The translations under genes were made by a program, and so were the position numbers. Below, piece after piece: positions 4,818 to 47,837 of a stretch of 55,800 nt of DNA (its first letter is position 1; every line of letters begins with the position of its first letter). The stretch spans positions 1 through 55,800 of the forward strand of contig CAYJMB010000001.1 in assembly GCA_964371455.1 (NCBI GenBank). Direction: 5' to 3'. This stretch comes from an uncultured archaeon. GTDB taxonomy: Archaea > Aenigmatarchaeota > Aenigmatarchaeia > GW2011-AR5. The notes under the pieces were generated by a model, which was given only the letters and a program-made list of their open reading frames with translations, searched no databases and had not been told where the DNA came from.

Positions 4818-5024
4818 AAGATAAATCCTTTCAATGAGAGGATACTGCAAACAGGCGCCTGGAATGTGTAGAACTGAAAAATGCACTGGCGGCTTGTGGG
4901 AAAGATGAAAATCCTGTAATAAAGTCCATAATGTTTGTTGGTAGAGGAAGGTTAAGATTAATTCAGAATGCCCCTACAGCGTTACAATTAATTACTATAA
5001 CAGAACATCTAGGATGCGAATACA

Positions 5025-6200
5025 ATGAAAAACGTGGCAGTAGTTGGTATCGGTCAGACGAAGTTCGGTGAGCACTGGGACAAGTCGCTGAAGGATATGA
5101 TATGCGAGGCTTCGCTTGCTGCTGTGGCGGATGCTGGCGTGGAAAAGAAGGATATTGAAAGCATTTACATTGGAAATATGTCTGCTGGAAGATTTGCAGG
5201 GCAGGAACATCTTGGCGCGCTTGCAGCGGACTGCATAGGCGTGAGTGTGCCGGCGACACGGTACGAAGCTGCGTGCGCTTCGGGCAGCGTGGCTTTCAGG
5301 AATGCGTACAATTCTGTGGCAGCGGGGCAGGAAAAGCTCGTGCTTGTCATAGGTGTGGAAAAGATGACTGATATCAGCATCCCGGCTGCTGTGCTGAGCT
5401 TGGCAGCTGCTGGTGATCAGGAATGGGAGGCTGCGGCGGGGCTGACATTTGCAGGCGCTTACGCGCTCATTGCGAGAAGGCACATGCATGAATTCGGCAC
5501 AACCAGGGAGCAGCTTGCAGCTGTGGCTGTCACAAACCATAAGAATGCTGTTGGAAATCCTTATGCGCAATTTCCTCATGCTGTTGCGCTGCAAGATGTT
5601 CTGGATGCTAACATGATTGCAGAACCCCTTGGCCTGCTGGACTGCTCTCCTATAACAGACGGGGCTGCGGCTGTTGTCGTTGCGGAAGAGGGCATTGCAA
5701 AGAAGTTGAATAATTTGCCGGCATGGGTTCTGGGTTCGGGGCAGGGCGCTGACACGCTTGCGCTGCACAGCAGGAAGTCTCTTGTAGAAATGCAGGCGAC
5801 AAAACAGGCTGCCAAGAGGGCTTTTGAGCAAGCTGGGATAGAAAGGAAAAACATTAATGTTGTGGAGGTACACGACTGCTTTACTATTAATGAGATCATT
5901 GGTTTAGAGGATTTGGGCTTTTGTGAAAAGGGTAAAGGAGGCAAATTTGTTGAGGACAGAAAAATAGAAAAAGATGGTGAGGTTCCTACAAACACGCTCG
6001 GCGGGCTGAAGGCATGCGGGCATCCTGTAGGTGCGACTGGGGTGAGGCAGATTATTGATATCGCGCGCCAGCTCAGGGGCAAGGCGTACAATCAAGTCCA
6101 AGGGGCTCGATACGGCTTGAATCTGAATATCGGAGGGTCTGGGGCGACGGCGGTTGTTAATATTTTTGGGAGTGAGTTGAATGGAAGAGGGTTGGGTTAA
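5025..6200 (+). CDS. Acetyl-CoA C-acetyltransferase (archaeal thiolase)
   Basis: 391 aa. It shows an MKNVAVVGIGQTKFGE start, an active-site-like AACASGS motif and a C-terminal GGLKACGHPVGATG...NIGGSG thiolase signature. Confidence 0.85.
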   Translation: MKNVAVVGIGQTKFGEHWDKSLKDMICEASLAAVADAGVEKKDIESIYIGNMSAGRFAGQEHLGALAADCIGVSVPATRYEAACASGSVAFRNAYNSVAAGQEKLVLVIGVEKMTDISIPAAVLSLAAAGDQEWEAAAGLTFAGAYALIARRHMHEFGTTREQLAAVAVTNHKNAVGNPYAQFPHAVALQDVLDANMIAEPLGLLDCSPITDGAAAVVVAEEGIAKKLNNLPAWVLGSGQGADTLALHSRKSLVEMQATKQAAKRAFEQAGIERKNINVVEVHDCFTINEIIGLEDLGFCEKGKGGKFVEDRKIEKDGEVPTNTLGGLKACGHPVGATGVRQIIDIARQLRGKAYNQVQGARYGLNLNIGGSGATAVVNIFGSELNGRGLG

Positions 6201-19796: not shown

Positions 19797-20993
19797 ATGA
19801 TAACGTCTAAATCAGGTGCTTTGATGAACTTTCCCAGCATGCTGAAAAAATACTGGCCTGCAGCGATTGTTCTTGCAATAGTAGTGCTCGGGCTTTATGT
19901 CAGGATTTTTGACTACAGGTTTCCATACCTGCGCAACATAGACTCCTATGCATTCACAAGACAGATTGAAGATGTTGCCAACAATGGTTACCTGCCACAG
20001 CACGATGACATGTCCCTTGCGCCAGCAGGGCAGGACAGGCCTCTGGGGAGAGACCTGTACGTGTACATCATGGCTTACAGCTTTAGTTTTGTGAAGTTCT
20101 TTATCCCTGACTATACCCTGTTCCAATTCCTGATATGGGCACCTGCCTTTATGGCGGCTCTCATGGCAATACCTATGTACTATATAGGCAAGACATTTTA
20201 CGACAGGCGTGCAGGAATACTGGCTGCATTTTTTATTGTCTTTGACATAACAATACTTTCAAGAACACTTGGCGGAGATCCTGACAATGACACTTCGGTC
20301 ATGCTGTTCCCGCTTATAGCCATTGCTCTGTTCCTGCTCGCGTACAAATATACCAATGAAAAAGGCTTTACAAAAAAAGGAATTTTGTATACGGCGCTGG
20401 CTGGCATAGGGCTGGGTGCATGGGGCTATATCTGGAGCGGGTTTTGGTTTGTGATATGGCTCATAGCAGGATTTATCATTGTCAAGATACTCATGAAGCT
20501 CGTTAAGAACAGAAACATAACTGCGATCAAAGGGCTGAAACGGCCGATATTTCTTTTTGCAGCCATGATGACAATATTTTTTGTACTCACTGTGCCGTTT
20601 TTAGGCTCAAGAGTGATTACAGAGACGGTGCAGGGGCCTTTCTCTTTCGGGGATATAAAAAGCGAAGAAAACAGGGAATTTCCCAATGTTTACGTATCTG
20701 TGGCAGAGCTGCAGTCTGGGGGCGGCGTGCGTGAAATCCTGCAGAGGACAAACACGTACCTCTTTATTTTCATGATATTTTCTCTGATATATCTGGCTGT
20801 TTCAGCACTCATGAAACGGGAAGAGCATATTGATACATTCATACTTCTGCTGATATGGTTTGTGGGGCCGCTGATTGCAACAGGCATAGGCATCAGATTT
20901 GCTGTTTTGTTTTCTGCACCTATTGCTATTGGCTCTGCTATATTCATTTCCAAAATATTCAGAATAATTGACGGCGAAGGGGCTGCAGACTAA
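19797..20993 (+). CDS. aglB: Oligosaccharyltransferase AglB/STT3, N-terminal membrane part (ends at in-frame TAA)
   Basis: It has multiple TM segments, an EL1 acidic motif (LRNIDSYAF...NNGYLPQHDD...AP.G) and a second acidic motif (GGDPDNDTS). Confidence 0.7.
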   Translation: MITSKSGALMNFPSMLKKYWPAAIVLAIVVLGLYVRIFDYRFPYLRNIDSYAFTRQIEDVANNGYLPQHDDMSLAPAGQDRPLGRDLYVYIMAYSFSFVKFFIPDYTLFQFLIWAPAFMAALMAIPMYYIGKTFYDRRAGILAAFFIVFDITILSRTLGGDPDNDTSVMLFPLIAIALFLLAYKYTNEKGFTKKGILYTALAGIGLGAWGYIWSGFWFVIWLIAGFIIVKILMKLVKNRNITAIKGLKRPIFLFAAMMTIFFVLTVPFLGSRVITETVQGPFSFGDIKSEENREFPNVYVSVAELQSGGGVREILQRTNTYLFIFMIFSLIYLAVSALMKREEHIDTFILLLIWFVGPLIATGIGIRFAVLFSAPIAIGSAIFISKIFRIIDGEGAAD

Positions 20994-22325
20994 ATGGTTA
21001 ACAAATATCTAGGGAGTGCTATTGGCAGTATAGTGTTTATGGCTGCAGTGTTCCTTGTATACATTGTTTTGTCGTTTCCGTTAACTTATGCAATAGGCTT
21101 TGCAGTGGCGTTTCTGGCTTATATTCCGGCTCTTTACTTTGCCAGCAAGATGGCAAATTTCACAGAGAAAAATTTCACAGATATAACATTCCTGCATCTC
21201 ACTGCAGCAACAATTTTGCTGGCATTTACCTTCTTTAATATGATATTTTTGCTTGTTGTTATCCTCATAGTTGCAATAGCATTCGTGGTAATGAAGACAT
21301 TTTCTATCAGAGATCTTCTAAAGACACTGTTCATGTTTATCATTGTCTTCATAGCAGCGACAACATCTTTCCAACCTGCTGTTGCAATATCAGCTGGCCA
21401 GGGAACAGTGCTCAGCGACAACTGGTGGAACTCACTGAACTGGATAAGGAACAACACAGAAACATGCGCTGTTGTTGCGACATACTGGGACCCGGGGCAC
21501 TTCATCACAGGCATTGCCAAAAGGCCAGTTGTATTTGACGGTGCGTCGCAGAATGCGCTGTGGAATATAACTGCAGCTGCAGGCCTTTCAGACGAAGAGA
21601 TAAGAGAAATAGCGGCGAGCGAGAAGTTCAGGGCAACAAACGTCACTGTTAACGGAGAGGCAAAAACACTTATAGAGACGGCCAGGATACAGGATATAGC
21701 AGCAACGCTGTCAACGGACAACGAGACATTGGCGATAAAGATACTGGAAAAATACAGGAAGCCCGGGTGCGATGAGGTGTATTACCTCGCAACTGCAGAC
21801 CTTGTAGGGAAAAGTTTCTGGTGGACATACTTCTGGTCATGGAATCCCATTGACAAAGGATGCGCGACTCCTATGTCACAGATGGGACTGAGGCAAGCCA
21901 GACCTTCAACAACGGGAGGCATAACTTATGTTTACGAGGGCGGAATCCCAGCAGGCTGCAACAGACAGGCACCAGGACAGGTGATAATCAACCAGCAGAA
22001 CGAATCCTTGCAGGCATTTGTCCTTCGTGGCAACCAACTTGAGCCGGTGGAGCAGTTTGTTTATTTCACTAACCAGGGCGGTATACTCAGAACCCAGCCC
22101 AATGCGCCTGTAAAGGGCATGATCTTCATGGAGCCGAACAGACAAGGAGTTATTTTCATCCCAGAAGAGATCAAAGATTCTATGTTTACAAAGATGTTCC
22201 TCTTCAATGGACAGGGGCTGGAGCGCTTTCAATTTGTGGATTCCTGGGGCGGGGAGATAAAGTTGTTTAGGATAAGATTTAACAACGCGACAGCTAACAT
22301 CACTATGCTTCATAGTTTGCTCTAG
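20994..22325 (+). CDS. aglB: Oligosaccharyltransferase AglB/STT3, C-terminal part with WWDYG-type motif
   Basis: It has further TM segments, then a VATYWDPGHFI (WWDYG-variant) motif and a soluble C-terminal domain. It starts with an ATG directly after, and in frame with, the TAA of the preceding ORF. Confidence 0.7.
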   Translation: MVNKYLGSAIGSIVFMAAVFLVYIVLSFPLTYAIGFAVAFLAYIPALYFASKMANFTEKNFTDITFLHLTAATILLAFTFFNMIFLLVVILIVAIAFVVMKTFSIRDLLKTLFMFIIVFIAATTSFQPAVAISAGQGTVLSDNWWNSLNWIRNNTETCAVVATYWDPGHFITGIAKRPVVFDGASQNALWNITAAAGLSDEEIREIAASEKFRATNVTVNGEAKTLIETARIQDIAATLSTDNETLAIKILEKYRKPGCDEVYYLATADLVGKSFWWTYFWSWNPIDKGCATPMSQMGLRQARPSTTGGITYVYEGGIPAGCNRQAPGQVIINQQNESLQAFVLRGNQLEPVEQFVYFTNQGGILRTQPNAPVKGMIFMEPNRQGVIFIPEEIKDSMFTKMFLFNGQGLERFQFVDSWGGEIKLFRIRFNNATANITMLHSLL

Positions 22326-22375
22326 TAGACCTACGATTTGCAACAACTTATATTCCTTTGTTTCAGAATAACAAC

Positions 22376-23890
22376 ATGAACTATGCAGAAAGGCTCTTTA
22401 AGGGCAGCACTGTTGTATTTGCAGCAGCTATACTGGCAGCTGTGCTTGGGTATTTGCTCAGACTATTCATCGCACGCAACCTATCTGTAACAGATTTCGG
22501 GCTGCTGTATTCTATATTTGTGTTTATTGCTTTCTTCTCCCTGTTCAAGGACATGGGACTCGGCCCCACACTTGTCAAATTTCTTGCAGAATTTTCAGTG
22601 ACAGAAAACAAAGATAAAATCAAATCTTCTATTTTGGCTGTTGGAGTGGTACAGCTCATTGTTGCAGTTGCCATCATGGTACCGATAATAATTTTTTCTG
22701 ATGCAATAGCAATAACATACTTTAAGACCAGCGCAGCATCAGCCCCCCTGCAGTTCATCGCTCTTTCATTTGTTATCGGGACAACGCTTACAACATTACA
22801 GCATGCCGCTCAGGGCCTTGGCCATGTAAAGATTTACTCACTCGTAGAGCCCATCAGGATAGTTGTCTCTTTTGTATTTGTTTTTCTTTTTGTATACATG
22901 GGTGTTATAGGTGTCAGCTATGCGTACGTCTTGGGCGCAGTTGCGTCTGTAATATTCCTGGCATCTGGACTAAAACGGAACAAAAAAATTACAGGCAAAG
23001 CCGTTTTTGACGGGGCGCTTTTCAAGCAACTAATGAAATTTGGCATACCTGTTTTTATTGGCGGGTTATCCTCGCTGCTTTTATTTTATACAGACACGAT
23101 AGTGCTCACAGTGTTTCGCGGGCTTGAAGATGTCGGGCTTTACCAAGCAGCTCTTCCTACATCACAACTACTATGGGTGCTTGCTAACTCGCTGGCTGTG
23201 ATACTTCTGCCTCTGGTATCAGAAATGTGGGCAAAGAAGCATACACGTGAGATATCAGCGACGCTGGGCTTGATGTCAAAATTCGCATTTGCGATAGTGA
23301 TCCCTTTAGCAATCATAATAATCGCCTTTGCAAGTGACATATTAATCATACTGTTTGGTCAGGCTTATGCACCTGCTGCGATAGCGCTGCAAATACTTGC
23401 GATAAACTCCATGTTTTATACGCTTTTTGTCGTATTTTCCAATTCACTTATAGCTGTTGACAAGCCTGTATCAAATACAAAAATAACTGTTTTTATATCT
23501 ATACTAAATCTTGTATTGAATATACTATTTATTCCGCAGTACGGCATAGTTGCTGCTGCTCTGTCAACTCTGCTGGCTTACTTTATCGGCACAGTGCTCG
23601 CTTTTTATGCATTAAGAAAGAGGGTGCAGGTACGAATGGATACAATTTCACTAGCAAAGATATTTGCGGGCGGCATGATGTCGCTGATGATAATTTTTGC
23701 CATTAAGACAATACTTATTTTCAATATCTGGGCTGAGATCATTGTGTCGCTTGCTGCCGGGCTTGTGTTTTATTCTGTTTTTATTTTGCGTACAAAAGGA
23801 CTAACAAAAGAAGAACTAAAATTTTTGCAAAAATTGAAGATACCTTTTCCAAACTTCGCTGTAAAAATACTGGCGAAATTGGCTTCTTAA
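22376..23890 (+). CDS. Wzx/MOP-family polysaccharide (lipid-linked oligosaccharide) flippase
   Basis: About 505 aa with 12-14 TM segments and the typical polysaccharide-biosynthesis-protein layout. The ATG at 22376 is preferred over TTG 22358. Confidence 0.7.
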   Translation: MNYAERLFKGSTVVFAAAILAAVLGYLLRLFIARNLSVTDFGLLYSIFVFIAFFSLFKDMGLGPTLVKFLAEFSVTENKDKIKSSILAVGVVQLIVAVAIMVPIIIFSDAIAITYFKTSAASAPLQFIALSFVIGTTLTTLQHAAQGLGHVKIYSLVEPIRIVVSFVFVFLFVYMGVIGVSYAYVLGAVASVIFLASGLKRNKKITGKAVFDGALFKQLMKFGIPVFIGGLSSLLLFYTDTIVLTVFRGLEDVGLYQAALPTSQLLWVLANSLAVILLPLVSEMWAKKHTREISATLGLMSKFAFAIVIPLAIIIIAFASDILIILFGQAYAPAAIALQILAINSMFYTLFVVFSNSLIAVDKPVSNTKITVFISILNLVLNILFIPQYGIVAAALSTLLAYFIGTVLAFYALRKRVQVRMDTISLAKIFAGGMMSLMIIFAIKTILIFNIWAEIIVSLAAGLVFYSVFILRTKGLTKEELKFLQKLKIPFPNFAVKILAKLAS

Positions 23891-23938: not shown

Positions 23939-24838
23939 ATGAAGGTGTGCGTTACAGGCGGAAGCGGGTTTATCGGTACTCACCTAGCCAGAGCACTGAT
24001 TACAGAGGGTCGTGGTGTTTCTGTGATAGACAAAGTAAGACCGGCTACCAGCATCGTTAATAACATAAATATTTTCCAGTGCGATCTTACTAGAAGTTTT
24101 AATACTTCTATATTTAGCGCCGATGCTGTTTTCCATTTCGCAGCTTCGGTTGATGTGAAGAAAAGCATGGAAAACCCTATGGAAAGCATAGAGAACAATG
24201 TTATTGCCACGCAAAATGTTCTGGATGCGTGCAGAAAGCAGGATGTAAAGAAAATAGTCTTTGCATCTACATCAACCGTTTACGGGAATGCGGACAAGAT
24301 CCCTACATCAGAAGACGCGGAACTGAGGCCCGTATCTGTTTACGGTGCCACAAAAGCGGCATGTGAAATGCTCATCAGGTCTTACTATGAAACATATGGA
24401 ATTGATGCACTTATACTTCGGTACGCTAACATCTATGGCCCGGGCAGCAGGCAAGGTGTCGTACAGGATTTTGTCAAAAAACTGTCTGCCGACACCTCGC
24501 AGTTAGAAATACTGGGAAATGGAATGCAGAGCAAATCTTACCTGTACATTGATGACGCTATTGCAGCGACACTATTGGCAGCAAACACAAAAGGGTGGAA
24601 TGTGTTCAATATAGGATCTGAAAAGCAGACAACAGTAAAGGAAATAGCAGAGATGGTCATAGATGCTATAGGGTTAACAAACGTGCAATTAAAATTCAGC
24701 AATGGAGTCAGCGGCTGGCCAGGAGATGTGCCAAGATTTTTGCTAGATGTAACAAAGATTAAGGCGCTTGGCTGGCAGGAGAAAACAGATATCAGAACAG
24801 GCGTCAGGCAATATGTGGAGTGGCTGGTGAGGCGATGA
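23939..24838 (+). CDS. NAD-dependent nucleotide-sugar epimerase/dehydratase (extended SDR)
   Basis: It has the VTGGSGFIGTHL Rossmann motif and a catalytic YGATK (YxxxK). Confidence 0.8.
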   Translation: MKVCVTGGSGFIGTHLARALITEGRGVSVIDKVRPATSIVNNINIFQCDLTRSFNTSIFSADAVFHFAASVDVKKSMENPMESIENNVIATQNVLDACRKQDVKKIVFASTSTVYGNADKIPTSEDAELRPVSVYGATKAACEMLIRSYYETYGIDALILRYANIYGPGSRQGVVQDFVKKLSADTSQLEILGNGMQSKSYLYIDDAIAATLLAANTKGWNVFNIGSEKQTTVKEIAEMVIDAIGLTNVQLKFSNGVSGWPGDVPRFLLDVTKIKALGWQEKTDIRTGVRQYVEWLVRR

Positions 24839-25698
24839 GCATACTTGTGGCAGGCAGCGCAGGATTTATAGGATCACATTTAATGGAGAGGCTGCCACAT
24901 GCAGAGACGTTCGACATCAAGACAGGACAGAATGGCCTGGACTTTGATCTTGTTAAGCGATGCGTAAAAAACAAAGAACTGGTTTTTCATCTTGCAAATA
25001 TGCCTGCCCACAGGCTTAGTGTTGAGAACCCTTACGAGATTGCCAAGAACAATTTCATGATAACGCTGAATTTTGCAGAGGCATGCAGGCAGTCTGACAC
25101 GAAGATGGTTTTTGCTTCTTCATTCAGCGTCTACGGGAAGCAGGCGCCGCCTTTCAGAGAAGACATGCCGATGCAGCCTGACACGCCTTACGGAGTGACA
25201 AAACAGGCTTGCGAGGAGATGCTAAAAATGTACAATGAAACTTACGGGATGGACATCATAATTGTCAGGCCCAGCAATGTATGGGGCAGCAGGGACTACC
25301 TACACGAACCGCTACAGGTGCTGCCGACATGGATAAACAATGCAAGGGACGGCAAGCCGCTGATCGTTTTCGGCGGGAACACGACAAGGGACTTCACACA
25401 CATCAATGATTTTATTGCAGGCATACTTCTTGCGAGTCAAAGAAACGGATGGGACATCTTTAACTTGGCTGCTGGAAAAGAGATTAAGCTTTTGGATATT
25501 GCGAAAGCTGTTTCAGACAATGTTACAGTAAAACCGCTGCCAAAATACGAGGCTGAGAGATGGTCTGGAGACAACACAAAAGCACGGACAGTTTTAGGCT
25601 GGGAACCGGAAACAGAGTTCTGGAGCGCGTTCCGGCAGTACTGCAGGGAGAGGTTAGGGAAAGAAATCATTTTCCCTGAAGAAAGCAATTTCACGTAA
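24835..25698 (+). CDS. NAD-dependent nucleotide-sugar epimerase/dehydratase (extended SDR), second copy
   Basis: It has VAGSAGFIGSHL and YGVTK motifs. Its ATG overlaps the preceding TGA (ATGA at 24835-24838). Confidence 0.8.
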   Translation: MSILVAGSAGFIGSHLMERLPHAETFDIKTGQNGLDFDLVKRCVKNKELVFHLANMPAHRLSVENPYEIAKNNFMITLNFAEACRQSDTKMVFASSFSVYGKQAPPFREDMPMQPDTPYGVTKQACEEMLKMYNETYGMDIIIVRPSNVWGSRDYLHEPLQVLPTWINNARDGKPLIVFGGNTTRDFTHINDFIAGILLASQRNGWDIFNLAAGKEIKLLDIAKAVSDNVTVKPLPKYEAERWSGDNTKARTVLGWEPETEFWSAFRQYCRERLGKEIIFPEESNFT

Positions 25699-25759: not shown

Positions 25760-26830
25760 ATGTCCAGGATTGTATGCGCACTTGGCAGAGTAGCATTTAC
25801 GTACAAGAAGAAAGAGCCGCCTAAAAAGATAGACAAGATACTCTTTCTCAAGATTGGAGCCCTTGGTGACGTGCTAATGACTACACCGCTCGTGAGGGCG
25901 ATCAGAAAGAAATTTATTCATGCCACAATTGATTACGCCTGCGGCAAGTCTTTTGCGAGTGCACTGCAATATAACAAAAACATCAATTACCTTATTCCAT
26001 TTGATGAACGAATATTTTTTAACAATGACTTTTCAGAACTAAGGAAGCTTGCTGTCAGGCTGAGGGGAAACAGGTATGATGTTATTTTTGTCCTGGATAA
26101 ACACTGGGCCGCAGGCTTGTTTGCGGCGCGGTGCGGCACTTTCAGGATAGGACTTGACAGATTTGGCGAAGGCTTTGCCAATAACCTCAATGTTTATTAC
26201 AGGCAGAACAAGCATGACATTGATGCATATCTTGACTTGGGCATATATTTCAGGGCAAAGCCTGCAGGCAGGGAAATGGACATAGCAATAACAAAACAAG
26301 ACAGGAAATTTGCACAGCGCGTCTGCAGCAAAAAATACATCGTCATTGCGCCTGGCGGGGCAAAAAATACAGGGCAGAGGGCGAAGATAAAGATCTGGCC
26401 CAAGGAAAATTACCTTCGTGTCGTAGACGCGTTATCTAAAAAATTTACTATCGTGCTTGTTGGCAACAAAAACGATAAAAAAATATCTTCCTGGATACGG
26501 AAACGCGCAAAGAACAAAAAGAAAATAAAGGACCTCTGCGGCAAAACAACAGTTGGGCAGACAGGGGCTGTCATGGCATTGTGCAAATTTGTAATCTGCA
26601 ACGATTCCGGGGCCATGCATATAGCATCGTGCGTGAACAACAATATTATATCTTTGTTTGGTCCGACAAATCCTCATGTGCTAGCACCTCTTAACAAGGG
26701 CAGTATATTCATCTGGAAGGAACAGAGGGCATGCTACGACATATACGGCAGATTCGGTACATGCAATAAGAACATAATGAAGAAAATCACTGTGGAGGAT
26801 GTGCTCAATGCGGCAAAAAGATACCAATAG
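25760..26830 (+). CDS. GT9-family glycosyltransferase (heptosyltransferase-like)
   Basis: The N-terminus has KILFLKIGALGDVLMTTPLVRAI. The C-terminus has DLCGKTTVGQTGAVMALCKFVICNDSGAMHIASC...LFGPTNP, the hallmark GT9 pattern. Confidence 0.7.
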   Translation: MSRIVCALGRVAFTYKKKEPPKKIDKILFLKIGALGDVLMTTPLVRAIRKKFIHATIDYACGKSFASALQYNKNINYLIPFDERIFFNNDFSELRKLAVRLRGNRYDVIFVLDKHWAAGLFAARCGTFRIGLDRFGEGFANNLNVYYRQNKHDIDAYLDLGIYFRAKPAGREMDIAITKQDRKFAQRVCSKKYIVIAPGGAKNTGQRAKIKIWPKENYLRVVDALSKKFTIVLVGNKNDKKISSWIRKRAKNKKKIKDLCGKTTVGQTGAVMALCKFVICNDSGAMHIASCVNNNIISLFGPTNPHVLAPLNKGSIFIWKEQRACYDIYGRFGTCNKNIMKKITVEDVLNAAKRYQ

Positions 26831-27917
26831 TCCGGGCAGCGCTATTAAAAAAGTGCTGATTATCAAAGGACCAGGAATAGGAGATGTTATAACATCTGTG
26901 CCGCTGGCCAGAAACTTCAAGCAGATACTAGGATGCGAGGTCCATATGCTGGAGGAATTCCCGCCTGAGAAGCAAGGAAAGGTTCTGATCAAAAACTGCC
27001 CTTACATAGACAAGATTGCAAGAATTGACTATAACATCTGGTACCTGAGGCCACATAGCGGGCATTTTTTGCGCGAGTTGTTTACACTAAGGTTCATTCC
27101 AGATGCATTCAGATTTATTCGCGATATCGCAAAACTAAGAAACGAAAAATACGATTTAGTGTTTGAGGGATTTCCCGGAACGCGGAATACGTACCTCCTG
27201 ACAAAATTCATCGGAGCAAAACTCAAGATATGCTGCGCAAGCCATCCTGCGAGGAAACTATACGACGAGTCTGTTGATATAACTGGCAAAAACATTGTCC
27301 AGCTAGAAAACAGCATTTTTGAACTGTTTGGCACCAAACTGACAGACGAAAAGCTTAAACTAGAAGTATTCTTTGACAAAGACCACATGAAGAAAACAGC
27401 AGATACAGTACTGAATGAACATGGGATAACAAAAAAATTGCCAATAGTCGGCATTAATACCGGACACAGTTATAAGAAGTGGCAGAATGTTAAATGGGCC
27501 AGGCTCATAGACAGCATTTCCGGGGCTGCTGTTGTGCTTGTCGGCGACAAAGAGCAGTCTGCAGACAGCAAGGAAATCCAGGCGCTCTGCAAGACAAAGT
27601 TTATAGACCTTACGGGGAAACTGAAACTGGAAGAGACTGCAGCAATTATGGAAAGAATGAGGATTTTCATATGCACAAATGGCGGGCTCACATGGATAGC
27701 TGCGGCCCTTGGTCTACCCACTGTAGTAGTGAGCGGGCCTACACCATACTGGTGGGACCCGCACACAAAAAACTGCAAAGTAGTAAGGAAAGCTGGGAAG
27801 ACATTTTATGAGCAGGAACAATATTCATGGCTTCAGCATGCACGCACAGATGACATTACAATAGAAGATGTAACGAAAGCGGCAAAAGAACTAGGGGAAC
27901 GCTATGGGAAAAATTGA
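26799..27917 (+). CDS. GT9-family glycosyltransferase (heptosyltransferase-like), second copy
   Basis: It has KVLIIKGPGIGDVITSVPLARNF and DLTGKLKLEETAAIMERMRIFICTNGGLTWIAAALGLPTVVVSGPT. Confidence 0.65.
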   Translation: MCSMRQKDTNSPGSAIKKVLIIKGPGIGDVITSVPLARNFKQILGCEVHMLEEFPPEKQGKVLIKNCPYIDKIARIDYNIWYLRPHSGHFLRELFTLRFIPDAFRFIRDIAKLRNEKYDLVFEGFPGTRNTYLLTKFIGAKLKICCASHPARKLYDESVDITGKNIVQLENSIFELFGTKLTDEKLKLEVFFDKDHMKKTADTVLNEHGITKKLPIVGINTGHSYKKWQNVKWARLIDSISGAAVVLVGDKEQSADSKEIQALCKTKFIDLTGKLKLEETAAIMERMRIFICTNGGLTWIAAALGLPTVVVSGPTPYWWDPHTKNCKVVRKAGKTFYEQEQYSWLQHARTDDITIEDVTKAAKELGERYGKN

Positions 27918-30446: not shown

Positions 30447-31481
30447 ATGTACTATGACATTAGAATGAGATATGCGAAGGAGGAGAAGACAAGGATCAGA
30501 CAAATAGAGGAAGATATACAGCGAGCACTAAAGGAGATCATAAATATTATTAGAGACAAATTCAGCAACTATGTACTTTCTTTCGGGCTTACAGGACCTA
30601 TGGCGCACGGTGAAGGCACTATATTTTTTCAGCAGGATCAAATAACTGGCAGCGATATAGATCTTGCGATTGTGACAAAATACCGTTCGCTTAGAAAACA
30701 GAAAGCACTGGAAAGAGAAATCAAAATAGCATTTTCTTGTTCAGGCTTGGAGGCGGGACCGCTGTTTTTTGCACCGAGCATATTTGATAGGCCTGATCTG
30801 CTCTTTGTGGAATACGCGAAAGCAGGAAAAGTTCTCTTTGGTGAGAAAGTCAGATGCAATAAAGATATAGCTGTCTGGGAAGCTGCAAAGATACTTACAT
30901 CACGATGCGGCGCATTTTTTGATTCCGTTTCATTCAATAGCGGAATAAAGTTCTCTCAGAAATTTCCTTATGCATGGTCAAAATCTGTCATGGCTGCTGC
31001 AGAGGCTATGCTCGTGCTGGAAAACAGATATGCATTCTCCATTCAGGCACGCACGATGAAGATAAAGAATTCCAAATATGCGAAACTCATGCCTGGATTT
31101 CTAAATCTCTATCAAAAGGCATATACATGCAGGTATTCTGGAAGGATGCCGCAACAAAAAGGTCTTATTGAGAAAACAGCAAATTTTATCTCTTTCGCGT
31201 TTGAAGAGACAGCCAAGAAGCTGGCTGAGAAGAGCGGGAGAGATATTGCAAATCTCAGTGCGCCGTTTCCCAGCATAATTTCCACACGCTTTTTCTATTT
31301 CATAAATATGCTTAAGAATGAGCATCTAAGCATCCCGCTCTCCGAACCTTTGGTTAAAGAATTCGCAGAAATGGGAAAAATGTTTGGACAGCTCAGATCC
31401 AGTGAGATTCCAGAAGAAAAAACAAGGCAGCGCGTTGTACGATTATGGAAACATGCAGAGAGATTCTGGTTGCCTTATTAA
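30447..31481 (+). CDS. Pol-beta-superfamily nucleotidyltransferase-fold protein with helical C-terminal domain
   Basis: GLTGPMAHGEGT...GSDIDLAIV fits the hG[GS]-x(n)-D-x-D minimal NTase signature. The rest is alpha-helical and has no motif I recognise. Confidence 0.4.
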   Translation: MYYDIRMRYAKEEKTRIRQIEEDIQRALKEIINIIRDKFSNYVLSFGLTGPMAHGEGTIFFQQDQITGSDIDLAIVTKYRSLRKQKALEREIKIAFSCSGLEAGPLFFAPSIFDRPDLLFVEYAKAGKVLFGEKVRCNKDIAVWEAAKILTSRCGAFFDSVSFNSGIKFSQKFPYAWSKSVMAAAEAMLVLENRYAFSIQARTMKIKNSKYAKLMPGFLNLYQKAYTCRYSGRMPQQKGLIEKTANFISFAFEETAKKLAEKSGRDIANLSAPFPSIISTRFFYFINMLKNEHLSIPLSEPLVKEFAEMGKMFGQLRSSEIPEEKTRQRVVRLWKHAERFWLPY

Positions 31482-41540: not shown

Positions 41541-41620
41541 AATAATTAAAGAAGCGAAAGATTCTTGTAGTCAAGCCATTGGCAGGAAACCATTTAAGTA
41601 TTACATATTCATACTTAGCT

Positions 41621-42337
41621 ATGAAAGATAAAATTGCGATTTCACTCAGCAAAGATATTATAGAAAAGATAGACAGAAAAATAGACGGCACAAATATCCG
41701 CAGCAGAAGCCAGGCTATTGAGGTTCTTATTAAGAGAGGGCTCATGGCAGAGCATGTGGACACAGCTGTTTTGCTGCTCAGCCAGATGCACTCGCATATC
41801 CCTCTAATGCTCTTCAAGTCTTCTACTGTGTTAGATCAGCAAATAGAATTCCTGAAGAAGAACAGGATAAATAATATATACATTATAGCTCAAGGAAATC
41901 TGAACACAGACAAGGCTGTCGTGATAAGGACAAAAGAGGCGAAAAACGGAGACGCATTGCGCCAGGCAAAGAATATCGCAAAAAATAATTTTATAGTTAT
42001 GAGCGGCGACATATACACCAACTTTAATCTTACTGACATGGTCGCCAAGCATGTTAATTCAGGCAAGCTCGCGACAGTGGGGCTTATAAGCTCGGCTACA
42101 CCATCCAAATATGGAACTGCTGTGCTGGAGGGCGACTTGGTTGCTGCTTTTGCAGAAAAACCAAAGCGTCCTGTATCGCATGTCATCAATGCAGGTATTT
42201 ACATTTTCAGCCCCGAAGTTTTCAGCATTATGAAGGGTTCGATAGAGCGAAATGTCCTGCCAGAGCTGGCGAAAAAGAAACAACTGGTCGGATATTTTGC
42301 TACAGGCGAGTATGTACATTTTGGAGAGAGGAAATAA
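41621..42337 (+). CDS. Ribbon-helix-helix (CopG-like) domain fused to a degenerate sugar-phosphate nucleotidyltransferase-like domain
   Basis: The N-terminus KIAISLSKDIIEKIDRKIDGTNIRSRSQAIEVLIKRGL is an RHH. The remainder aligns with NTP-transferase folds (GDALRQAK, MSGDIYTNF, SKYGTAVLEGD..AFAEKPKRP..HVINAGIYIFSPEVF). The G-x-G-T-R-L loop is replaced by LLLSQMHSHIPL. The ATG at 41621 is preferred over TTG 41579. Confidence 0.55.
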   Translation: MKDKIAISLSKDIIEKIDRKIDGTNIRSRSQAIEVLIKRGLMAEHVDTAVLLLSQMHSHIPLMLFKSSTVLDQQIEFLKKNRINNIYIIAQGNLNTDKAVVIRTKEAKNGDALRQAKNIAKNNFIVMSGDIYTNFNLTDMVAKHVNSGKLATVGLISSATPSKYGTAVLEGDLVAAFAEKPKRPVSHVINAGIYIFSPEVFSIMKGSIERNVLPELAKKKQLVGYFATGEYVHFGERK

Positions 42338-42358: not shown

Positions 42359-43429
42359 CTATAACTTTACCAAATCCTTGGATGCTTCTATAACATCTTC
42401 TACTTTCAGATTCTTCATGTGTTCATGATTACATTCTGGAAACTGGGCGCGAAATGGCAGGATGCATGGGAGGCCGCTGTCTTTTCTCAGACTGACGCAG
42501 TGCTGACCATAAGGGCCAAAGCGTTCCGGTACGTTGGGGCCGAAGAGCCCTACAGTTGGGATACCCATGGCAGCTGCTATGTGCATGGGGCCGGAGTCAT
42601 TGGCTATCACTAATTTCATTTTTGAGAATAGGTACGCAAGCTCATTAATGGAAAGATGGCCGCTAAGGTCTTTTATTCTGTTTCTATACTTACAGAGGCT
42701 GATGATTCTTTTGTTTATGTCCTTTTCATTTTCAGCACCAACCAGATAAACAGCCCAGCCCCTGCTTGCGAAAAAATCACAGATCTTTGCAAAATTCTCC
42801 TCAGGCCATCTTCTTGTTGTGGATGTAGATGCAGAGCCTGCATGTATGGCCAGAGCGTTTTGCTGAAATTTTATTGCGGACGGTTTGGAGAATACCGGGA
42901 CAAGCGCTTTTGGGGCAGGAAAGTACGAAAAAGCGGAAAATATCCTGTAAAAAGACAGCACTGCATGTTCGTTCTCGTTAATTTTGACCGAGCACGTGTA
43001 GAGATGACGGCGATTGTCGAGGCCATAGCGTTTCTGCGCGCCAGAAAGAGCGCTGAGCACAGCAGAGAATTTCATATATGGATCTGCATCAATTGCAACA
43101 GAGAACCGGAATTTTCTTATGGACAATATTGTTGAGATGGCTTTGAAGGGATTAGTGAAATTAAAGACAACAACCTCATCTATGAATTTCTGATTTTCAA
43201 AAACTGCTTTGTTCTCCTCGGTGCAGATTACTGTTATTGTATGGCCTTTATCTTTTATGGCTTTGATGCATGGCAACACTAAAACACTCTCGCCAATTGC
43301 CCATAGTTTTATGATGAGGACATTTTTGTTCGCTGCATTATTTTGCAAGAATGGCAGGAGCAGCCAGCACAGCATATAAAGAAACATGCCAACATACCTG
43401 TCCAGCATACGCAAAATTTTTGGCTGCAT
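42359..43429 (-). CDS. GT9-family glycosyltransferase (heptosyltransferase-like), third copy
   Basis: It has NVLIIKLWAIGESVLVLPCIKAI and DLSGHLSINELAYLFSKMKLVIANDSGPMHIAAAMGIPTVGLFGPNVP. Confidence 0.7.
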   Translation of the reverse strand: MQPKILRMLDRYVGMFLYMLCWLLLPFLQNNAANKNVLIIKLWAIGESVLVLPCIKAIKDKGHTITVICTEENKAVFENQKFIDEVVVFNFTNPFKAISTILSIRKFRFSVAIDADPYMKFSAVLSALSGAQKRYGLDNRRHLYTCSVKINENEHAVLSFYRIFSAFSYFPAPKALVPVFSKPSAIKFQQNALAIHAGSASTSTTRRWPEENFAKICDFFASRGWAVYLVGAENEKDINKRIISLCKYRNRIKDLSGHLSINELAYLFSKMKLVIANDSGPMHIAAAMGIPTVGLFGPNVPERFGPYGQHCVSLRKDSGLPCILPFRAQFPECNHEHMKNLKVEDVIEASKDLVKL

Positions 43430-43433
43430 AACA

Positions 43434-44219
43434 TCATTTCCCGTCTGGAGAAGGCGGAGGAATTATCAGATTATCGTGCGCCAACTTGTTTGCCTCTTCG
43501 TATGCCTGTAGCGTGCCGATGTCTATCCAGAATGTTATCTTTTCTGTAAAACCGGCAAGCTTACCTTTTGCAGCAAGCAAGGGGAAAAGACTATCCTCTA
43601 TTTTGATTTCCCTGTCCTCTACCAGCTCTTCTACTTCATCTAATTCAAGAATATAGTACGCAGCGTTTGCCAACAGCGATTCAGGAACACGGGGCTTTTC
43701 AACGAATTTTTCTATCAGCGTAAAGCCGACCTCTTTTTTGATATTGGCTACCCCAAGGCGCTTTGCATTCTCTTCCGTGACTTCAAACAAGGCAACAGTT
43801 GCTGATGTGCCCAGGGCAGCGCGGCATTCTTTATGATAATCCAGCAGATCGGCTACGTTCACGTCAGAAAGGCTGTCCCCATAGGCGACGACAACAGGAC
43901 CTGATTGCAGGCCGCATTCTCTTAAAACTTTTTTTAAATCACCTGCTGTTTCTTTCTGTTCTGTCCTGACCGTCCTGATTGCTCCGCTGTATTTCTCACC
44001 CAGATACTTTTCTATGCAAAAGGCCTGGATTCTGGATAATTCATCTATGTTGCCTGCTATTGCCACTATGATTTCGTCTATTTCGCTGCTTTTTTTCAGG
44101 TTGCCTATGACCCAATCTATGATGGGAACACCTTTCACGGGGAGAAGAGGCTTAGGCACTCCATAAGTAAGCGGCCGCAACCTTGTGCCCTTGCCTGCAG
44201 CAAGAATTATAGCTTTCAT
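43434..44219 (-). CDS. Sugar-1-phosphate nucleotidyltransferase
   Basis: It has the canonical loop MKAIILAAGKGTRLRPLTYGVPKPLLPV, then YGDSLSDVN and EKFVEKP. Sugar specificity cannot be determined from the sequence. Confidence 0.8.
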   Translation of the reverse strand: MKAIILAAGKGTRLRPLTYGVPKPLLPVKGVPIIDWVIGNLKKSSEIDEIIVAIAGNIDELSRIQAFCIEKYLGEKYSGAIRTVRTEQKETAGDLKKVLRECGLQSGPVVVAYGDSLSDVNVADLLDYHKECRAALGTSATVALFEVTEENAKRLGVANIKKEVGFTLIEKFVEKPRVPESLLANAAYYILELDEVEELVEDREIKIEDSLFPLLAAKGKLAGFTEKITFWIDIGTLQAYEEANKLAHDNLIIPPPSPDGK

Positions 44220-46451: not shown

Positions 46452-47066
46452 TTACCTGTTGCTGTCTTTTGAGAAAATATCCTTTACACCAAGCCAAATC
46501 CAGTGGAGAAGTTCAAAGTAACTAATTTGAACATTCTGCGTATCACCAGAAGGAATTACTATGGCTATATCAGAACGACCCACAATTTCATGACTCAACT
46601 CACCGTTTCCAACAATGCCAATTCGGTAAATTCCCATACATTTCGCGAGATCCAGTGCTCTCCTCACGTTAACAGCTTTGCCGCTTGTGCTTATTCCATA
46701 GATCACATCACCTGCTTTACCCATCGTTCGTAGCTGATATTCAAAGGCGTGTTGGTCTCCGTAATCATTAGAGATTGCTGTGACAGAAGACGCATCCGTT
46801 AACGACAAAGAACGAAACATTACACCTTCATAAGGCAGCGTATCACGAAATTCTCCTGCAAAATGCTGGGAATCTGCCGCACTTCCCCCATTGCCGCAGA
46901 AGTAAGCAGCGCCACCTGACCGAAAAACATCTGCAGTCAATATAAGAGCTCTTGCCACTTGGTCAAAAACTCCTGCTTCTTCAAATGCACTTCTTACTTT
47001 TGTATGTGCCTTATATCTCCGTTTCAAATTTCCAATCAGCTCTTGATCTATCTCGCTATTTACCAT
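46452..47066 (-). CDS. gmhA: Phosphoheptose (sedoheptulose-7-phosphate) isomerase
   Basis: It is a SIS domain carrying the GmhA signature YFCGNGGSAADSQHFAGEF, and its 204 aa length fits. Confidence 0.8.
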   Translation of the reverse strand: MVNSEIDQELIGNLKRRYKAHTKVRSAFEEAGVFDQVARALILTADVFRSGGAAYFCGNGGSAADSQHFAGEFRDTLPYEGVMFRSLSLTDASSVTAISNDYGDQHAFEYQLRTMGKAGDVIYGISTSGKAVNVRRALDLAKCMGIYRIGIVGNGELSHEIVGRSDIAIVIPSGDTQNVQISYFELLHWIWLGVKDIFSKDSNR

Positions 47067-47392
47067 CTAACCATCTCCTCTGTTCTTCCAGAAAATATTG
47101 AATTGGCCTGTCGTCTTTTGGGTACAATCGTGTCAATTCGGGTCCAATGCCCAAGTCTTTCAGTACTTTTGTCGTTAGTTGCTACAATTAATATTCCTCC
47201 GTTAGCGTGTCGCTGCAAGAACTCTTTTGCCTCTTCCAAGGCATTTGCGTGATGTGGTCTCACTGGATTGAAAGTGCCTACAGCTATTCCTGATTTCTTT
47301 CCTCGTTCCTTATAACTAGCAATTAATGTTCCAGCCTTATACAGGCTTATTACTTTTTCCATTTGCATACACTTCCAGTACCTTTTCAACAA
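47060..47392 (-). pseudogene. Truncated, degenerate paralogue of the adjacent heptose-1-P adenylyltransferase (cytidylyltransferase fold)
   Basis: IAVGTFNPVRPHHANALEEAKEF...ILIVATNDKS parallels the neighbour's VTTNGCFDILHIGHVRYLAEAKKL...VLMVGMNSDVS. However, the HxGH motif is RPHH and the C-terminal half is missing. It overlaps both flanking genes. Confidence 0.35.
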
Positions 47393-47837
47393 TATTTGTT
47401 GTAGACTTGCCTTCTGTTTTTGGGATCAGCACGACTTTGCCGCCTGCCTTTTCCACAGCACCTTTTTCTACACAATCCTTGATGCTATAGTCCCTGCCGC
47501 TGGCCTTGACGTGAACATCTGGCTTGATTTTTTCTACCCACTTGTTTGGCGTTTCGTCATCGAAAAGGAAAACGCAGTCTACTGATTTTATAGCATTGAG
47601 CATTTCTGCACGTTCTCTTTCCGGTATTATTGGCCTCTTCTCGCCTTTGAGCTTTCTCGCCGATACATCAGAGTTCATTCCCACCATAAGAACATCTCCC
47701 AGCTTTTTGGCTTCTGCCAAATAGCGGACATGACCTATGTGCAGAATATCAAAACAGCCATTTGTGGTAACAATCTTTTTACACTGCTTTCTACACTTAT
47801 CTGCGATTTTTATTGCTTCTTTCAAAGAGACGATCAT
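47337..47837 (-). CDS. hldC: D-glycero-beta-D-manno-heptose 1-phosphate adenylyltransferase (RfaE/HldE domain II type)
   Basis: It has the cytidylyltransferase signature TNGCFDILHIGHVRYL, GMNSDVSARKLKGEKRPI and a C-terminal KSTTNIVEKV. Confidence 0.8.
   Translation of the reverse strand: MIVSLKEAIKIADKCRKQCKKIVTTNGCFDILHIGHVRYLAEAKKLGDVLMVGMNSDVSARKLKGEKRPIIPERERAEMLNAIKSVDCVFLFDDETPNKWVEKIKPDVHVKASGRDYSIKDCVEKGAVEKAGGKVVLIPKTEGKSTTNIVEKVLEVYANGKSNKPV

Follow-up and report, generated by a model that had tools for sequence, protein, structure and literature searches.

Three GT9-family glycosyltransferases beside AglB and ADP-heptose genes in a DPANN archaeon

The window considered here, the whole stretch of 55,800 nucleotides that was analysed, is contig C1 of a 0.89-Mb metagenome-assembled genome (MAG) with a completeness of 73%. 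Archaeal Cdc6/Orc1, PolB (the family-B DNA polymerase), AglB and SecDF are all encoded on this 57-kb contig, and the PolB has its nearest public relatives in groundwater MAGs of Candidatus Aenigmatarchaeota, which identifies the source as a DPANN archaeon (an Aenigmatarchaeota MAG). The G+C content is uniform along the window. The same contig carries three genes of glycosyltransferase family 9 (GT9), the family of the lipopolysaccharide (LPS) heptosyltransferases of Escherichia coli. A preliminary description of the window suggested that the three enzymes use ADP-heptose, and that their acceptor is a dolichol-phosphate-linked glycan in place of lipid A-Kdo (Kdo, 3-deoxy-D-manno-octulosonic acid).

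Previous studies reported heptose in the N-glycan of Thermoplasma acidophilum (PMC11407970) and noted ADP-heptose clusters in 'Iplasma' and Methanococcus maripaludis KA1/JJ (PMC3750248, PMC12667266). These reports concern a heptose-containing N-glycan or ADP-heptose clusters in glycan islands, as here, but no heptosyltransferase was identified in any of them. The in vitro synthesis of ADP-heptose by archaeal enzymes has been published, in work that left open what NDP-heptoses are used for outside bacteria (PMC11461863). As GT9 acceptors other than LPS (those of TibC and Aah) are also known, the background given in the preliminary description was incomplete. Our literature search found no paper on archaeal GT9 enzymes or DPANN heptose glycans. 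Heptose as part of an archaeal N-glycan and the ADP-heptose genes of archaea were known before; what is new here is a set of three orthogroups with distinct active-site signatures, a putative anchor helix in one of them, a quantified linkage to HldC and AglB, and a cassette shared with a bacterium.

Family, fold and active sites of the three proteins

The three genes are as follows (bits and E-values are for Pfam PF01075, Glyco_transf_9).

25760..26830, plus strand: GT9-1, 356 aa, canonical GT9 heptosyltransferase-type protein, clade 1; 120.3 bits (E 1e-34)
26799..27917, plus strand: GT9-2, 372 aa, divergent GT9, clade 2; 73.2 bits (E 3e-20)
42359..43429, minus strand: GT9-3, 356 aa, GT9 clade 3; 123.4 bits (E 1e-35)

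The earlier assignment of all three open reading frames (ORFs) to GT9 was confirmed, every score lying far above the gathering score of 22 bits, and they are the only GT9 matches in the whole 0.89-Mb genome. The best PDB sequence match of each is the Veillonella parvula protein 3TOV (E 9e-21, 7e-8 and 6e-21 for GT9-1, GT9-2 and GT9-3, respectively); GT9-1, placed by sequence only, also matches WaaF (1PSW) at E 9e-18. AlphaFold models of GT9-2 (pLDDT 82.9, pTM 0.80) and GT9-3 (pLDDT 93.5, pTM 0.92) were built from clade alignments, and their top Foldseek matches are 3TOV, WaaF and WaaC (1PSW, 2H1H/2GT1/6DFE; E 1e-12 to 1e-21, TM-scores 0.65-0.81, those to 3TOV 0.73-0.81). TibC (E ~1e-8) and other GT-B enzymes rank far below these. 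The preliminary description had named membership of a GT-B family other than GT9 as one outcome that would speak against it; the Pfam match and, for the two modelled proteins, the best structural matches all point to GT9. For both models, the matches ranked next are to a subunit of the NDH-PSI supercomplex of plant chloroplasts (9GRX chain 1, 7WFF chain a, 7F9O chain 6; E 1e-8 to 1e-13); a GT9-like fold is therefore used there as a structural subunit as well.

None of the three proteins reaches an equivalog cut-off for WaaC, WaaF or WaaQ (TIGR02193, TIGR02195, TIGR02201, NF008204, NF008162, NF007742). The nearest approach is that of GT9-1 to TIGR02195 (124.6 bits, cut-off 134.6), and the other scores are far lower. 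For TIGR04414, the TibC/Aah family with a cut-off of 200 bits, GT9-2 scores 35.9 bits and the other two give no match. The Kdo transferase WaaA (PF04413) was not found in the genome (73% complete) by a search to which control genomes responded. We classify the three proteins as GT9 enzymes and not as LPS heptosyltransferases; these negatives and the archaeal contig support the earlier view that lipid A-Kdo cannot be the target.

A maximum-likelihood tree was made from 157 GT9 sequences, comprising the window's three, ORFs of related genomes, database homologues, and E. coli WaaC, WaaF, WaaQ and WaaU. The window's proteins fall into three separate clades, each with an SH-aLRT support of 99, and no clade in this tree groups specifically with an E. 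coli enzyme. Members of clade 1 come from Aenigmatarchaeota, Woesearchaeota and Nanoarchaeota, plus one from the cultured bacterium Haliovirga abyssi; those of clade 3 come from Aenigmatarchaeota, Undinarchaeota, Woesearchaeota and Nanoarchaeota; and clade 2 in this tree consists only of Aenigmatarchaeota-labelled or unlabelled sequences. Two related genera (G007, G010) have one member per clade, in the gene order GT9-2, GT9-1, ribbon-helix-helix (RHH)-nucleotidyltransferase, GT9-3. We regard the trio as three orthogroups, not as recent duplicates.

The key residues of WaaC are D13, K192, E222, D261 and H266, the last two framing the signature D261-(T/S)-(G/A)-X-X-H266, and D13 and H266 alone are conserved in all characterised heptosyltransferases compared (Merino et al. 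2013, PMC3559599). Heptose O5/O6 are contacted by Lys192, whose place is taken by Arg or Asn in D,D-heptosyltransferases; Glu222 was reported to contact heptose O2/O3, and Asp261 and His266 also contact the sugar (PMC3559599). Substitution in HepI lowers activity by about 4700-fold (D13A), 2000-fold (D261A) and 900-fold (K192A) (PMC5713226). The clades compare at these positions as follows.

Clade 1: Asp13 51/51; Lys or Arg192 51/51; Asp261 51/51; His266 51/51
Clade 2: Asp13 16/16; Lys or Arg192 15/16; Asn261 16/16; Trp266 13/16
Clade 3: Glu13 22/25; Arg192 25/25; Asp261 25/25; His266 25/25
65 other sequences, mostly bacterial-type: Asp13 64/65; Lys or Arg192 63/65; Asp261 64/65; His266 65/65

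GT9-1 retains D13, K192 and the signature as D261-S-G-A-M-H266. GT9-3 has the conforming signature DSGPMH, with Glu at position 13 and Arg at 192; its Glu13 could act as the catalytic base, and the invariant Arg192 of clade 3 may hint at D,D-heptose, for which it is a weak predictor. Clade 2 additionally has Gly262 (15/16) and Gln in place of Glu222 (13/16), and its deeper members in G007 and G010 retain His266. The motifs quoted in the preliminary description were nearly right, except that GT9-3 has G-E-S where G-D was given, and that in GT9-2 (C-T-N-G-G-L-T-W) the residue before Asn is Thr, not Asn or Cys. Its further step from three paralogues to a multi-heptose glycan was overstated, since GT9-2 lacks the D(T/S)(G/A)XXH signature; a multi-heptose product is at most suggested.

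Across phyla, clade 3 also shares a hydrophobic N-terminal extension of about 30 residues, which is missing from E. coli WaaC and WaaF, from clade 2 and from most of clade 1. The GT9-3 model shows it as a helix (residues 3-28) that precedes the first Rossmann strand (36-40), and it may serve as a membrane anchor. The 'transmembrane' segments indicated by a hydrophobicity scan in GT9-1 and GT9-3 were discarded as an artefact of the first Rossmann strand-helix, and the anchor candidate in GT9-3 is helix 3-28.

Linkage to ADP-heptose genes and to AglB

The neighbouring genes that bear on donor and acceptor are these.

19797..20993, plus strand: N-terminal membrane part of AglB/STT3 (first of two ORFs); PF02516 93.3 bits, TIGR04154 (archaeal STT3), about nine hydrophobic segments
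20994..22325, plus strand: C-terminal part of AglB (second of two ORFs), in frame immediately after the TAA of the first; junction gac TAA ATG
22358..23890, plus strand: Wzx/MOP-type flippase for lipid-linked glycans; PF01943 100.5 bits, PF13440, many hydrophobic segments
23939..25698, plus strand: two overlapping genes of sugar-nucleotide epimerase/dehydratase type, of the short-chain dehydrogenase/reductase (SDR) class; PF01370 186.9 and 156.3 bits
27904..28980, plus strand: family 2 glycosyltransferase (GT2); PF00535 101.6 bits, no equivalog reached, start overlapping the end of GT9-2
41579..42337, plus strand: RHH plus nucleotidyltransferase-fold protein; PF00483, PF01402, divergent neighbour of GT9-3
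43434-44219, minus strand: sugar-1-phosphate nucleotidyltransferase, upstream of GT9-3 on the same strand; PF00483 115.5 bits
44515-45819, minus strand: UDP-glucose 6-dehydrogenase, AglM-type; NF041297 (AglM) 474.9 bits, TIGR03026 460 bits
45907-46497, minus strand: GmhB; NF006506 186.7 bits (cut-off 178)
46452-47066, minus strand: GmhA; TIGR00441 107 bits, best-matching family
47337-47837, minus strand: HldC; TIGR02199 186.7 bits (cut-off 181.5)
47842-48885, minus strand: HldA; TIGR02198 288.9 bits, best-matching family

AglB lies 3.4 kb upstream of GT9-1 on the same strand, at the head of a series of co-directional genes that overlap or are narrowly spaced: AglB, its second part, Wzx, SDR, SDR, GT9-1, GT9-2, GT2, a B12/radical-SAM enzyme and a 344-aa protein. 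GT9-2 overlaps its two neighbours, GT9-1 upstream and the GT2 gene downstream. GT9-3 lies 14 kb beyond this pair on the opposite strand, as the last gene of a run ordered HldA, HldC, GmhA, GmhB, UDP-glucose dehydrogenase, a small ORF, the sugar-1-phosphate nucleotidyltransferase and GT9-3. Gene order and family scores thus support what had been described, namely that the GT9 genes are linked to AglB as well as to a complete ADP-heptose pathway.

The association with ADP-heptose genes extends well beyond this window. Among 301 genomes of the window's phylum, GT9 was found in 15 and a strong HldC match (160 bits or more) in 11; nine genomes have both, six have GT9 alone, two HldC alone and 284 neither (Fisher p=5e-12; p=2e-7 at the genus level). 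A second DPANN phylum, sampled as 251 genomes centred on a Woesearchaeota genome, has GT9 in 75 and strong HldC in 50 (47 genomes with both, 28 with GT9 alone, three with HldC alone and 173 with neither; p=2e-27), these counts being phylogenetically non-independent so that all such p-values overstate the evidence. GT9 and HldC share a contig in 38 of the 47 genomes that have both; the distance between them is at most 10 kb in 34 and at most 5 kb in 29. One Woesearchaeota contig reads UbiA, GT9, GmhA, SDR, fused HldE, GT9, GT9, and an Undinarchaeota contig reads HldA, HldC, GT9, GmhB, GmhA; GT9 is likewise interleaved with GmhA, HldA, HldC or HldE in four further genomes.

ADP-heptose, the donor named in the preliminary description, accordingly gains from the co-occurrence and physical linkage in two DPANN phyla and from the GT9 genes inside ADP-heptose operons. 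For clades 1 and 3 at least, it is the donor with the best support. We consider it likely for GT9-1 and GT9-3 and, with less assurance, probable for GT9-2. A certain arginine of HldC, five residues before S-T-T (STTR5), permits the synthesis of CDP- or UDP-heptose (PMC11461863). It is absent from the window's HldC, which has Lys there, and the family orthologues compared never have Arg (Lys in G001, G007 and G006 as well, Ala or Tyr in two other family members); Woesearchaeota and Undinarchaeota have Phe, Leu or Met. The missing Arg counts in favour of ADP-heptose, although with Lys in the window's family this test for CDP- or UDP-heptose does not settle the nucleotide.

The link to AglB is also conserved. 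The layout AglB, Wzx, SDR, SDR, GT9-1, GT9-2, GT2 is also that of the sister genome G001 and of a 369-kb contig from a metagenome (L034), the order Wzx-SDR-SDR-GT9 is found in L034 and L040, and in G010 the GT9 triad directly follows AglB, GT4, GT2 and Wzx. In the second phylum AglB is near-universal (225/251), which makes co-occurrence uninformative, so physical distance was used instead. AglB positions were listed for 52 GT9-bearing genomes of that phylum; 21 of these have a GT9 no more than 10 kb from AglB, where about 3.9% would be expected by chance (binomial p=1e-16), and 19 have one no more than 6 kb away. The mode of the distance, 3.6-4.5 kb, means that GT9 adjoins the 3-kb AglB gene.

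Four loci of the second phylum share the order GGR, AglB, a GT2 of about 230 aa, clade-3 GT9, GmhA, HldC, HldA, followed in three by a clade-1 GT9; GGR and AglB are upstream neighbours in the window too. In the two loci read in detail, a 112-aa DUF2304 protein stands between the GT2 and the clade-3 GT9, with overlapping stop and start codons. The relatives' GT2 scores 195.8 bits for PpgS (polyprenyl-phosphate GalNAc synthase) and 111 bits for AglJ, and its pairing with DUF2304 mirrors the mycobacterial PpgS/Rv3632 pair. This PpgS/AglJ-like pair just upstream of clade-3 GT9 suggests that a polyprenyl- or dolichyl-phosphate-linked sugar is the primer and that the clade-3 enzyme is the first heptosyltransferase; with the GT9-AglB adjacency, it supports the lipid-linked acceptor proposed earlier. 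The pair occupies 3937-4972 of L035 and 4052-5087 of L037, both from Woesearchaeota, and it also occurs near a GT9 at L032 2988-4014. At L033 6566-8558 (Undinarchaeota), two small genes separate GT2 from DUF2304, and both precede HldA-HldC-GT9; an AglH-type gene (PF00953) also lies within the Undinarchaeota cluster.

A related arrangement was found in a bacterium. The complete genome of Haliovirga abyssi (Fusobacteriota, AP027059.1) contains the run GT2, DUF2304, GT9, tetratricopeptide repeat (TPR) protein, GT9 (L039 4888-9044, with the GT2/DUF2304 pair at 4888-5986). Its upstream GT9 has all the features of clade 3 (N-terminal helix, GES, R-R-W, NDTGPMH), and its downstream GT9 belongs to clade 1. 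No LPS-core gene was called in the 17-kb locus, in which TPR proteins and an 1842-aa protein flank the cassette. The GT9 cassette is thus not specific to archaea, and an adjacent AglB is not required.

A proposed pathway and its alternatives

From the family, fold, active-site residues, orthogroups and linkage to HldC and AglB described above, we infer a donor, an acceptor, an order of action and a final protein target. On balance we favour a pathway in which the GT9 enzymes heptosylate a dolichyl-phosphate-linked glycan from ADP-heptose, Wzx flips the product and AglB transfers it to protein. The GT-B enzymes of family GT9 would act at the cytoplasmic face, within a glycosylation module conserved in DPANN. 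A GT2 would make the dolichyl-phosphate-linked sugar primer, in relatives the PpgS/AglJ-like GT2 with its DUF2304 partner, and here perhaps a GT2 of the island itself or a similar one from another contig. Each of the three GT9s may then add one heptose with inversion of the anomeric configuration. GT9-3 would probably act first, given its N-terminal hydrophobic helix and the position of its relatives nearest to AglB and the GT2/DUF2304 pair, and further elongation or branching would probably fall to GT9-1 and the lineage-restricted GT9-2. The glycan may be tailored by methyltransferases, radical-SAM enzymes and a deacetylase encoded nearby, after which the Wzx-type flippase would move it across the membrane and the two-part AglB transfer it to Asn of surface proteins.

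Several observations weigh against this pathway. The window provided no identifiable initiating enzyme: the AglH type (PF00953) was not found in the genome, which is 73% complete, the island's three GT2s do not reach the cut-offs for AglJ, AglG or AglD, the GT2/DUF2304 pair is absent from the window, with no DUF2304 found by tblastn, and PpgS-like GT2 genes occur in this genome only on contigs C73 and C4. Two of the three active sites depart from the rule, with Glu in GT9-3 at the 'universally conserved' Asp13 and N-G-G-L-T-W in GT9-2, not the heptosyltransferase signature D-(T/S)-(G/A)-X-X-H. The nucleotidyltransferase and UDP-glucose dehydrogenase beside GT9-3 make another donor possible, and the overstated co-occurrence p-values count here too. 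With regard to the final transfer, no STT3-type gene is among the 11 called in the Haliovirga locus, and PMT_2-type GT-C proteins occur beside clade-1 GT9 genes in Woesearchaeota clusters. The DPANN heptose glycans themselves are a prediction from genes.

The closest comparison on the enzyme side is with E. coli WaaC (HepI), WaaF (HepII) and WaaQ (HepIII) (PDB 2H1H, 6DFE, 1PSW). They share with the window's proteins the Pfam family and GT-B fold, the catalytic architecture of GT9-1 (Asp base, Lys/Arg192, D-S-G-x-M-H donor signature), the coupling to GmhA/HldA/GmhB/HldC and the use of several paralogues in one pathway. However, the window's GT9s are only 17-24% identical to them, and the archaeal partners are AglB, Wzx and polyprenyl-phosphate sugar synthase genes, with neither LPS genes nor lipid A-Kdo. 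The V. parvula protein 3TOV is a structural-genomics entry of unassigned function and, at about 20% identity to the window's GT9s, is uninformative on function. The WahF-type enzymes of Aeromonas and Actinobacillus, with the signature S(T/S)(G/A)XXH, provide a precedent for GT9-2 in lacking Asp261, and the Arg192 of GT9-3 matches the Arg/Asn replacement of D,D-heptosyltransferases (PMC3559599). WahF retains His266 and acts on the LPS core, whereas GT9-2 has Trp266 as well as Asn261.

On the pathway side, the proposed logic resembles that of the Agl system of Haloferax volcanii (AglJ, AglG, AglI, AglE, a flippase and AglB), in which a GT2 charges dolichyl phosphate, the glycan is extended at the cytoplasmic face by soluble or peripheral glycosyltransferases and then flipped, and AglB transfers it to Asn; its agl genes cluster around aglB, as in the window. 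In contrast, none of the Haloferax glycosyltransferases is a GT9, its glycan contains no heptose, and AglB is in two parts in the window. The autotransporter O-heptosyltransferases TibC and Aah (PDB 4RAP, 4RB4) have a GT-B fold, use ADP-heptose and act on a non-LPS acceptor; TibC differs in being dodecameric and iron-binding, in acting directly on protein, and in a structural similarity to the window's GT9s much weaker than that of WaaC and WaaF.

A bolder form of the proposed pathway can be entertained tentatively. An old portable cassette, present in DPANN and at least one bacterium, would combine the GT2/DUF2304 primer pair, a membrane-anchored, Glu-base clade-3 GT9 for the first heptose and a clade-1 GT9 for the next, so that an oligosaccharide resembling the LPS inner core would be built on dolichyl phosphate and passed to AglB. 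Aenigmatarchaeota would have added a re-tooled clade-2 GT9 (Asn261, Trp266) for an SDR-modified heptose or another type of linkage. Should this be true, GT9 would gain a new acceptor class, and the question of what non-bacterial NDP-heptoses are for, raised after Tang et al. 2024, would be answered.

Among the alternatives, the one that survives best concerns the donor. It is unlikely, though the strongest of the competing readings, that one or more of the paralogues, with GT9-2 the likeliest, make no use of ADP-heptose and instead transfer another or a modified sugar (a product of the SDR pair or another NDP-sugar) or act as a non-catalytic partner. Clade 2 has Asn261, Gly262, Trp266 and Gln222, where the Asp261, His266 and Glu222 of WaaC contact the sugar, the D261A mutant of WaaC loses most of its activity (see above), two SDR genes that are not HldD stand directly upstream of GT9-1, and the NDH-PSI matches indicate that proteins of GT9 fold can be non-enzymatic. 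However, clade 2 keeps Asp13 and Lys/Arg192 in a strongly conserved pocket, its deeper members have His266, and WahF is an active heptosyltransferase with Ser261 (PMC3559599).

Further evidence on GT9-2 came from its wider relatives. A word-index search found only 12 close relatives before identity fell to 26%, and GT9-2 was taken to form a tiny clade confined to Aenigmatarchaeota. This was overturned by an exhaustive profile search of 1.84 billion representatives, which found 463 proteins at E <= 1e-30. Among the top 149 representatives, about 45 have Asn261 (in DNSGH, DNSGW, DNGGH and others) and about 15 have Trp266, so that GT9-2 is part of a wider, uncharacterised Asn261 subfamily. One Asn261-type member with DNSGH, P0304, is the only GT9 in an operon that runs GT4, HldA, HldC, GmhA, small ORF, GmhB, GT9; a deacetylase gene comes next and a Wzx gene somewhat later, with an archaeal-type DUF1616 gene nearby. 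This operon and the precedent of WahF make heptose transfer by Asn261 enzymes plausible, and a non-heptose donor for GT9-2, once the lead reading, was downgraded on these grounds.

Rather less probable, but still a serious rival, is a fate that bypasses AglB, in which the GT9s build a short heptose glycan on polyprenyl phosphate that ends as a glycolipid or lipoglycan, as a secreted polysaccharide, or on O-sites of proteins through a GT-C enzyme (PMT- or ArnT-like). The Haliovirga cassette has no STT3-type gene in its locus, the Undinarchaeota cluster includes a PMT gene and LPG_synthase_TM genes, and flippases of the Wzx type act on lipid-linked glycans of any kind. The clade-1 GT9 genes of Woesearchaeota loci overlap the beginning of genes for membrane proteins of about 545 aa (L035 10208-11851 and 16349-18037; L036 11145-12770; L037 11844-13484), one of which matches PMT_2, the GT-C family of dolichyl-phosphate-mannose protein mannosyltransferases. 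Such neighbours hint at a second, AglB-independent use of lipid-linked sugars, and the lipid-linked product may thus have a fate other than AglB. Yet the window lacks a Wzy, a ligase and any PMT/ArnT-like gene, GT9-1 and GT9-2 belong to a tight co-directional run with AglB and Wzx, and GT9-AglB adjacency is about 10-fold above chance across a phylum; we continue to favour transfer by AglB.

Direct cytoplasmic O-heptosylation of protein Ser/Thr, in the manner of TibC/Aah and with no lipid carrier, is very improbable. TibC-type enzymes share the fold and GT9-2 matches TIGR04414 weakly, but that match falls far short of the cut-off, the other two proteins have none, TibC ranks far below WaaC, WaaF and 3TOV in both fold searches, and the conserved partners (flippase, polyprenyl-phosphate sugar synthase pair, AglB) imply a lipid carrier. 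Bacterial contamination or misassembly, with enzymes acting on bacterial LPS, would fit the automatic database name 'LPS heptosyltransferase II' of homologues and one 66%-identical homologue labelled Moranbacteria, but is extremely improbable given the archaeal markers on the contig, the absence of WaaA from the genome, the even G+C content, the recurrence of the layout on the 369-kb contig and in several related genomes, and the fact that the 'Moranbacteria' contig is only 3.5 kb long, has the window's gene order and is probably misbinned. Gene sharing between the Candidate Phyla Radiation and DPANN, considered on the strength of that homologue (L040, GCA_028715745.1), was rejected because its contig is probably a misbinned Aenigmatarchaeota fragment.

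The locus and its relatives offer a concrete and testable answer to how NDP-heptoses may be used outside bacteria, namely by GT9s that feed AglB-dependent N-glycosylation. The acceptor range of GT9 would widen from lipid A-Kdo and autotransporter proteins to polyprenyl-phosphate-linked glycans, and the orthogroups supply mutational hypotheses on Glu13/Arg192 with the anchor helix and on Asn261/Trp266. DPANN archaea live attached to host cells, so what their surface glycans are made of probably has a bearing on host recognition. In animals, ADP-heptose moreover acts as an agonist of innate immunity. For organisms without LPS, the database name 'LPS heptosyltransferase II' is misleading.

Other genes of the island

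The SDR pair beside GT9-1 does not encode HldD, the ADP-heptose 6-epimerase (TIGR02197 103.9 and 81.3 bits, cut-off 274.6). The sole good HldD candidate in the genome lies on another contig (G000:C44:1357-2244) and scores 274.2 bits, just under that cut-off; in G006, a true HldD (305.8 bits) adjoins the RHH/GT9-3 pair.

The RHH-nucleotidyltransferase gene adjoins a clade-3 GT9 in five other genomes (G007, G010, G006, G001, G489; loci L018, L020, L022, L026, L038) from two DPANN phyla, at 42-73% identity. Its conserved position fits a regulator of the heptose/GT9 genes.

AglB is split at the same homologous position in the window (19797-22325), in L034 (2773-5249) and in L022 (G010:C1, 2350-4895). 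The coupling junctions differ, being TAA then ATG in frame in the window, TAATG in L034 and ATGA in G010, and AglB of Woesearchaeota relatives is a single ORF of about 1100 aa. The two-gene AglB looks like a natural arrangement, not a sequencing error.

The 344-aa protein at the end of the AglB run (30447-31481) matches no Pfam or NCBIfam family. It contains a G-x-x-x-x-H-G-E-G ... D-I-D pattern, which we take to be typical of Pol-beta-type nucleotidyltransferases, and a 345-aa counterpart follows the B12/radical-SAM gene in L034.

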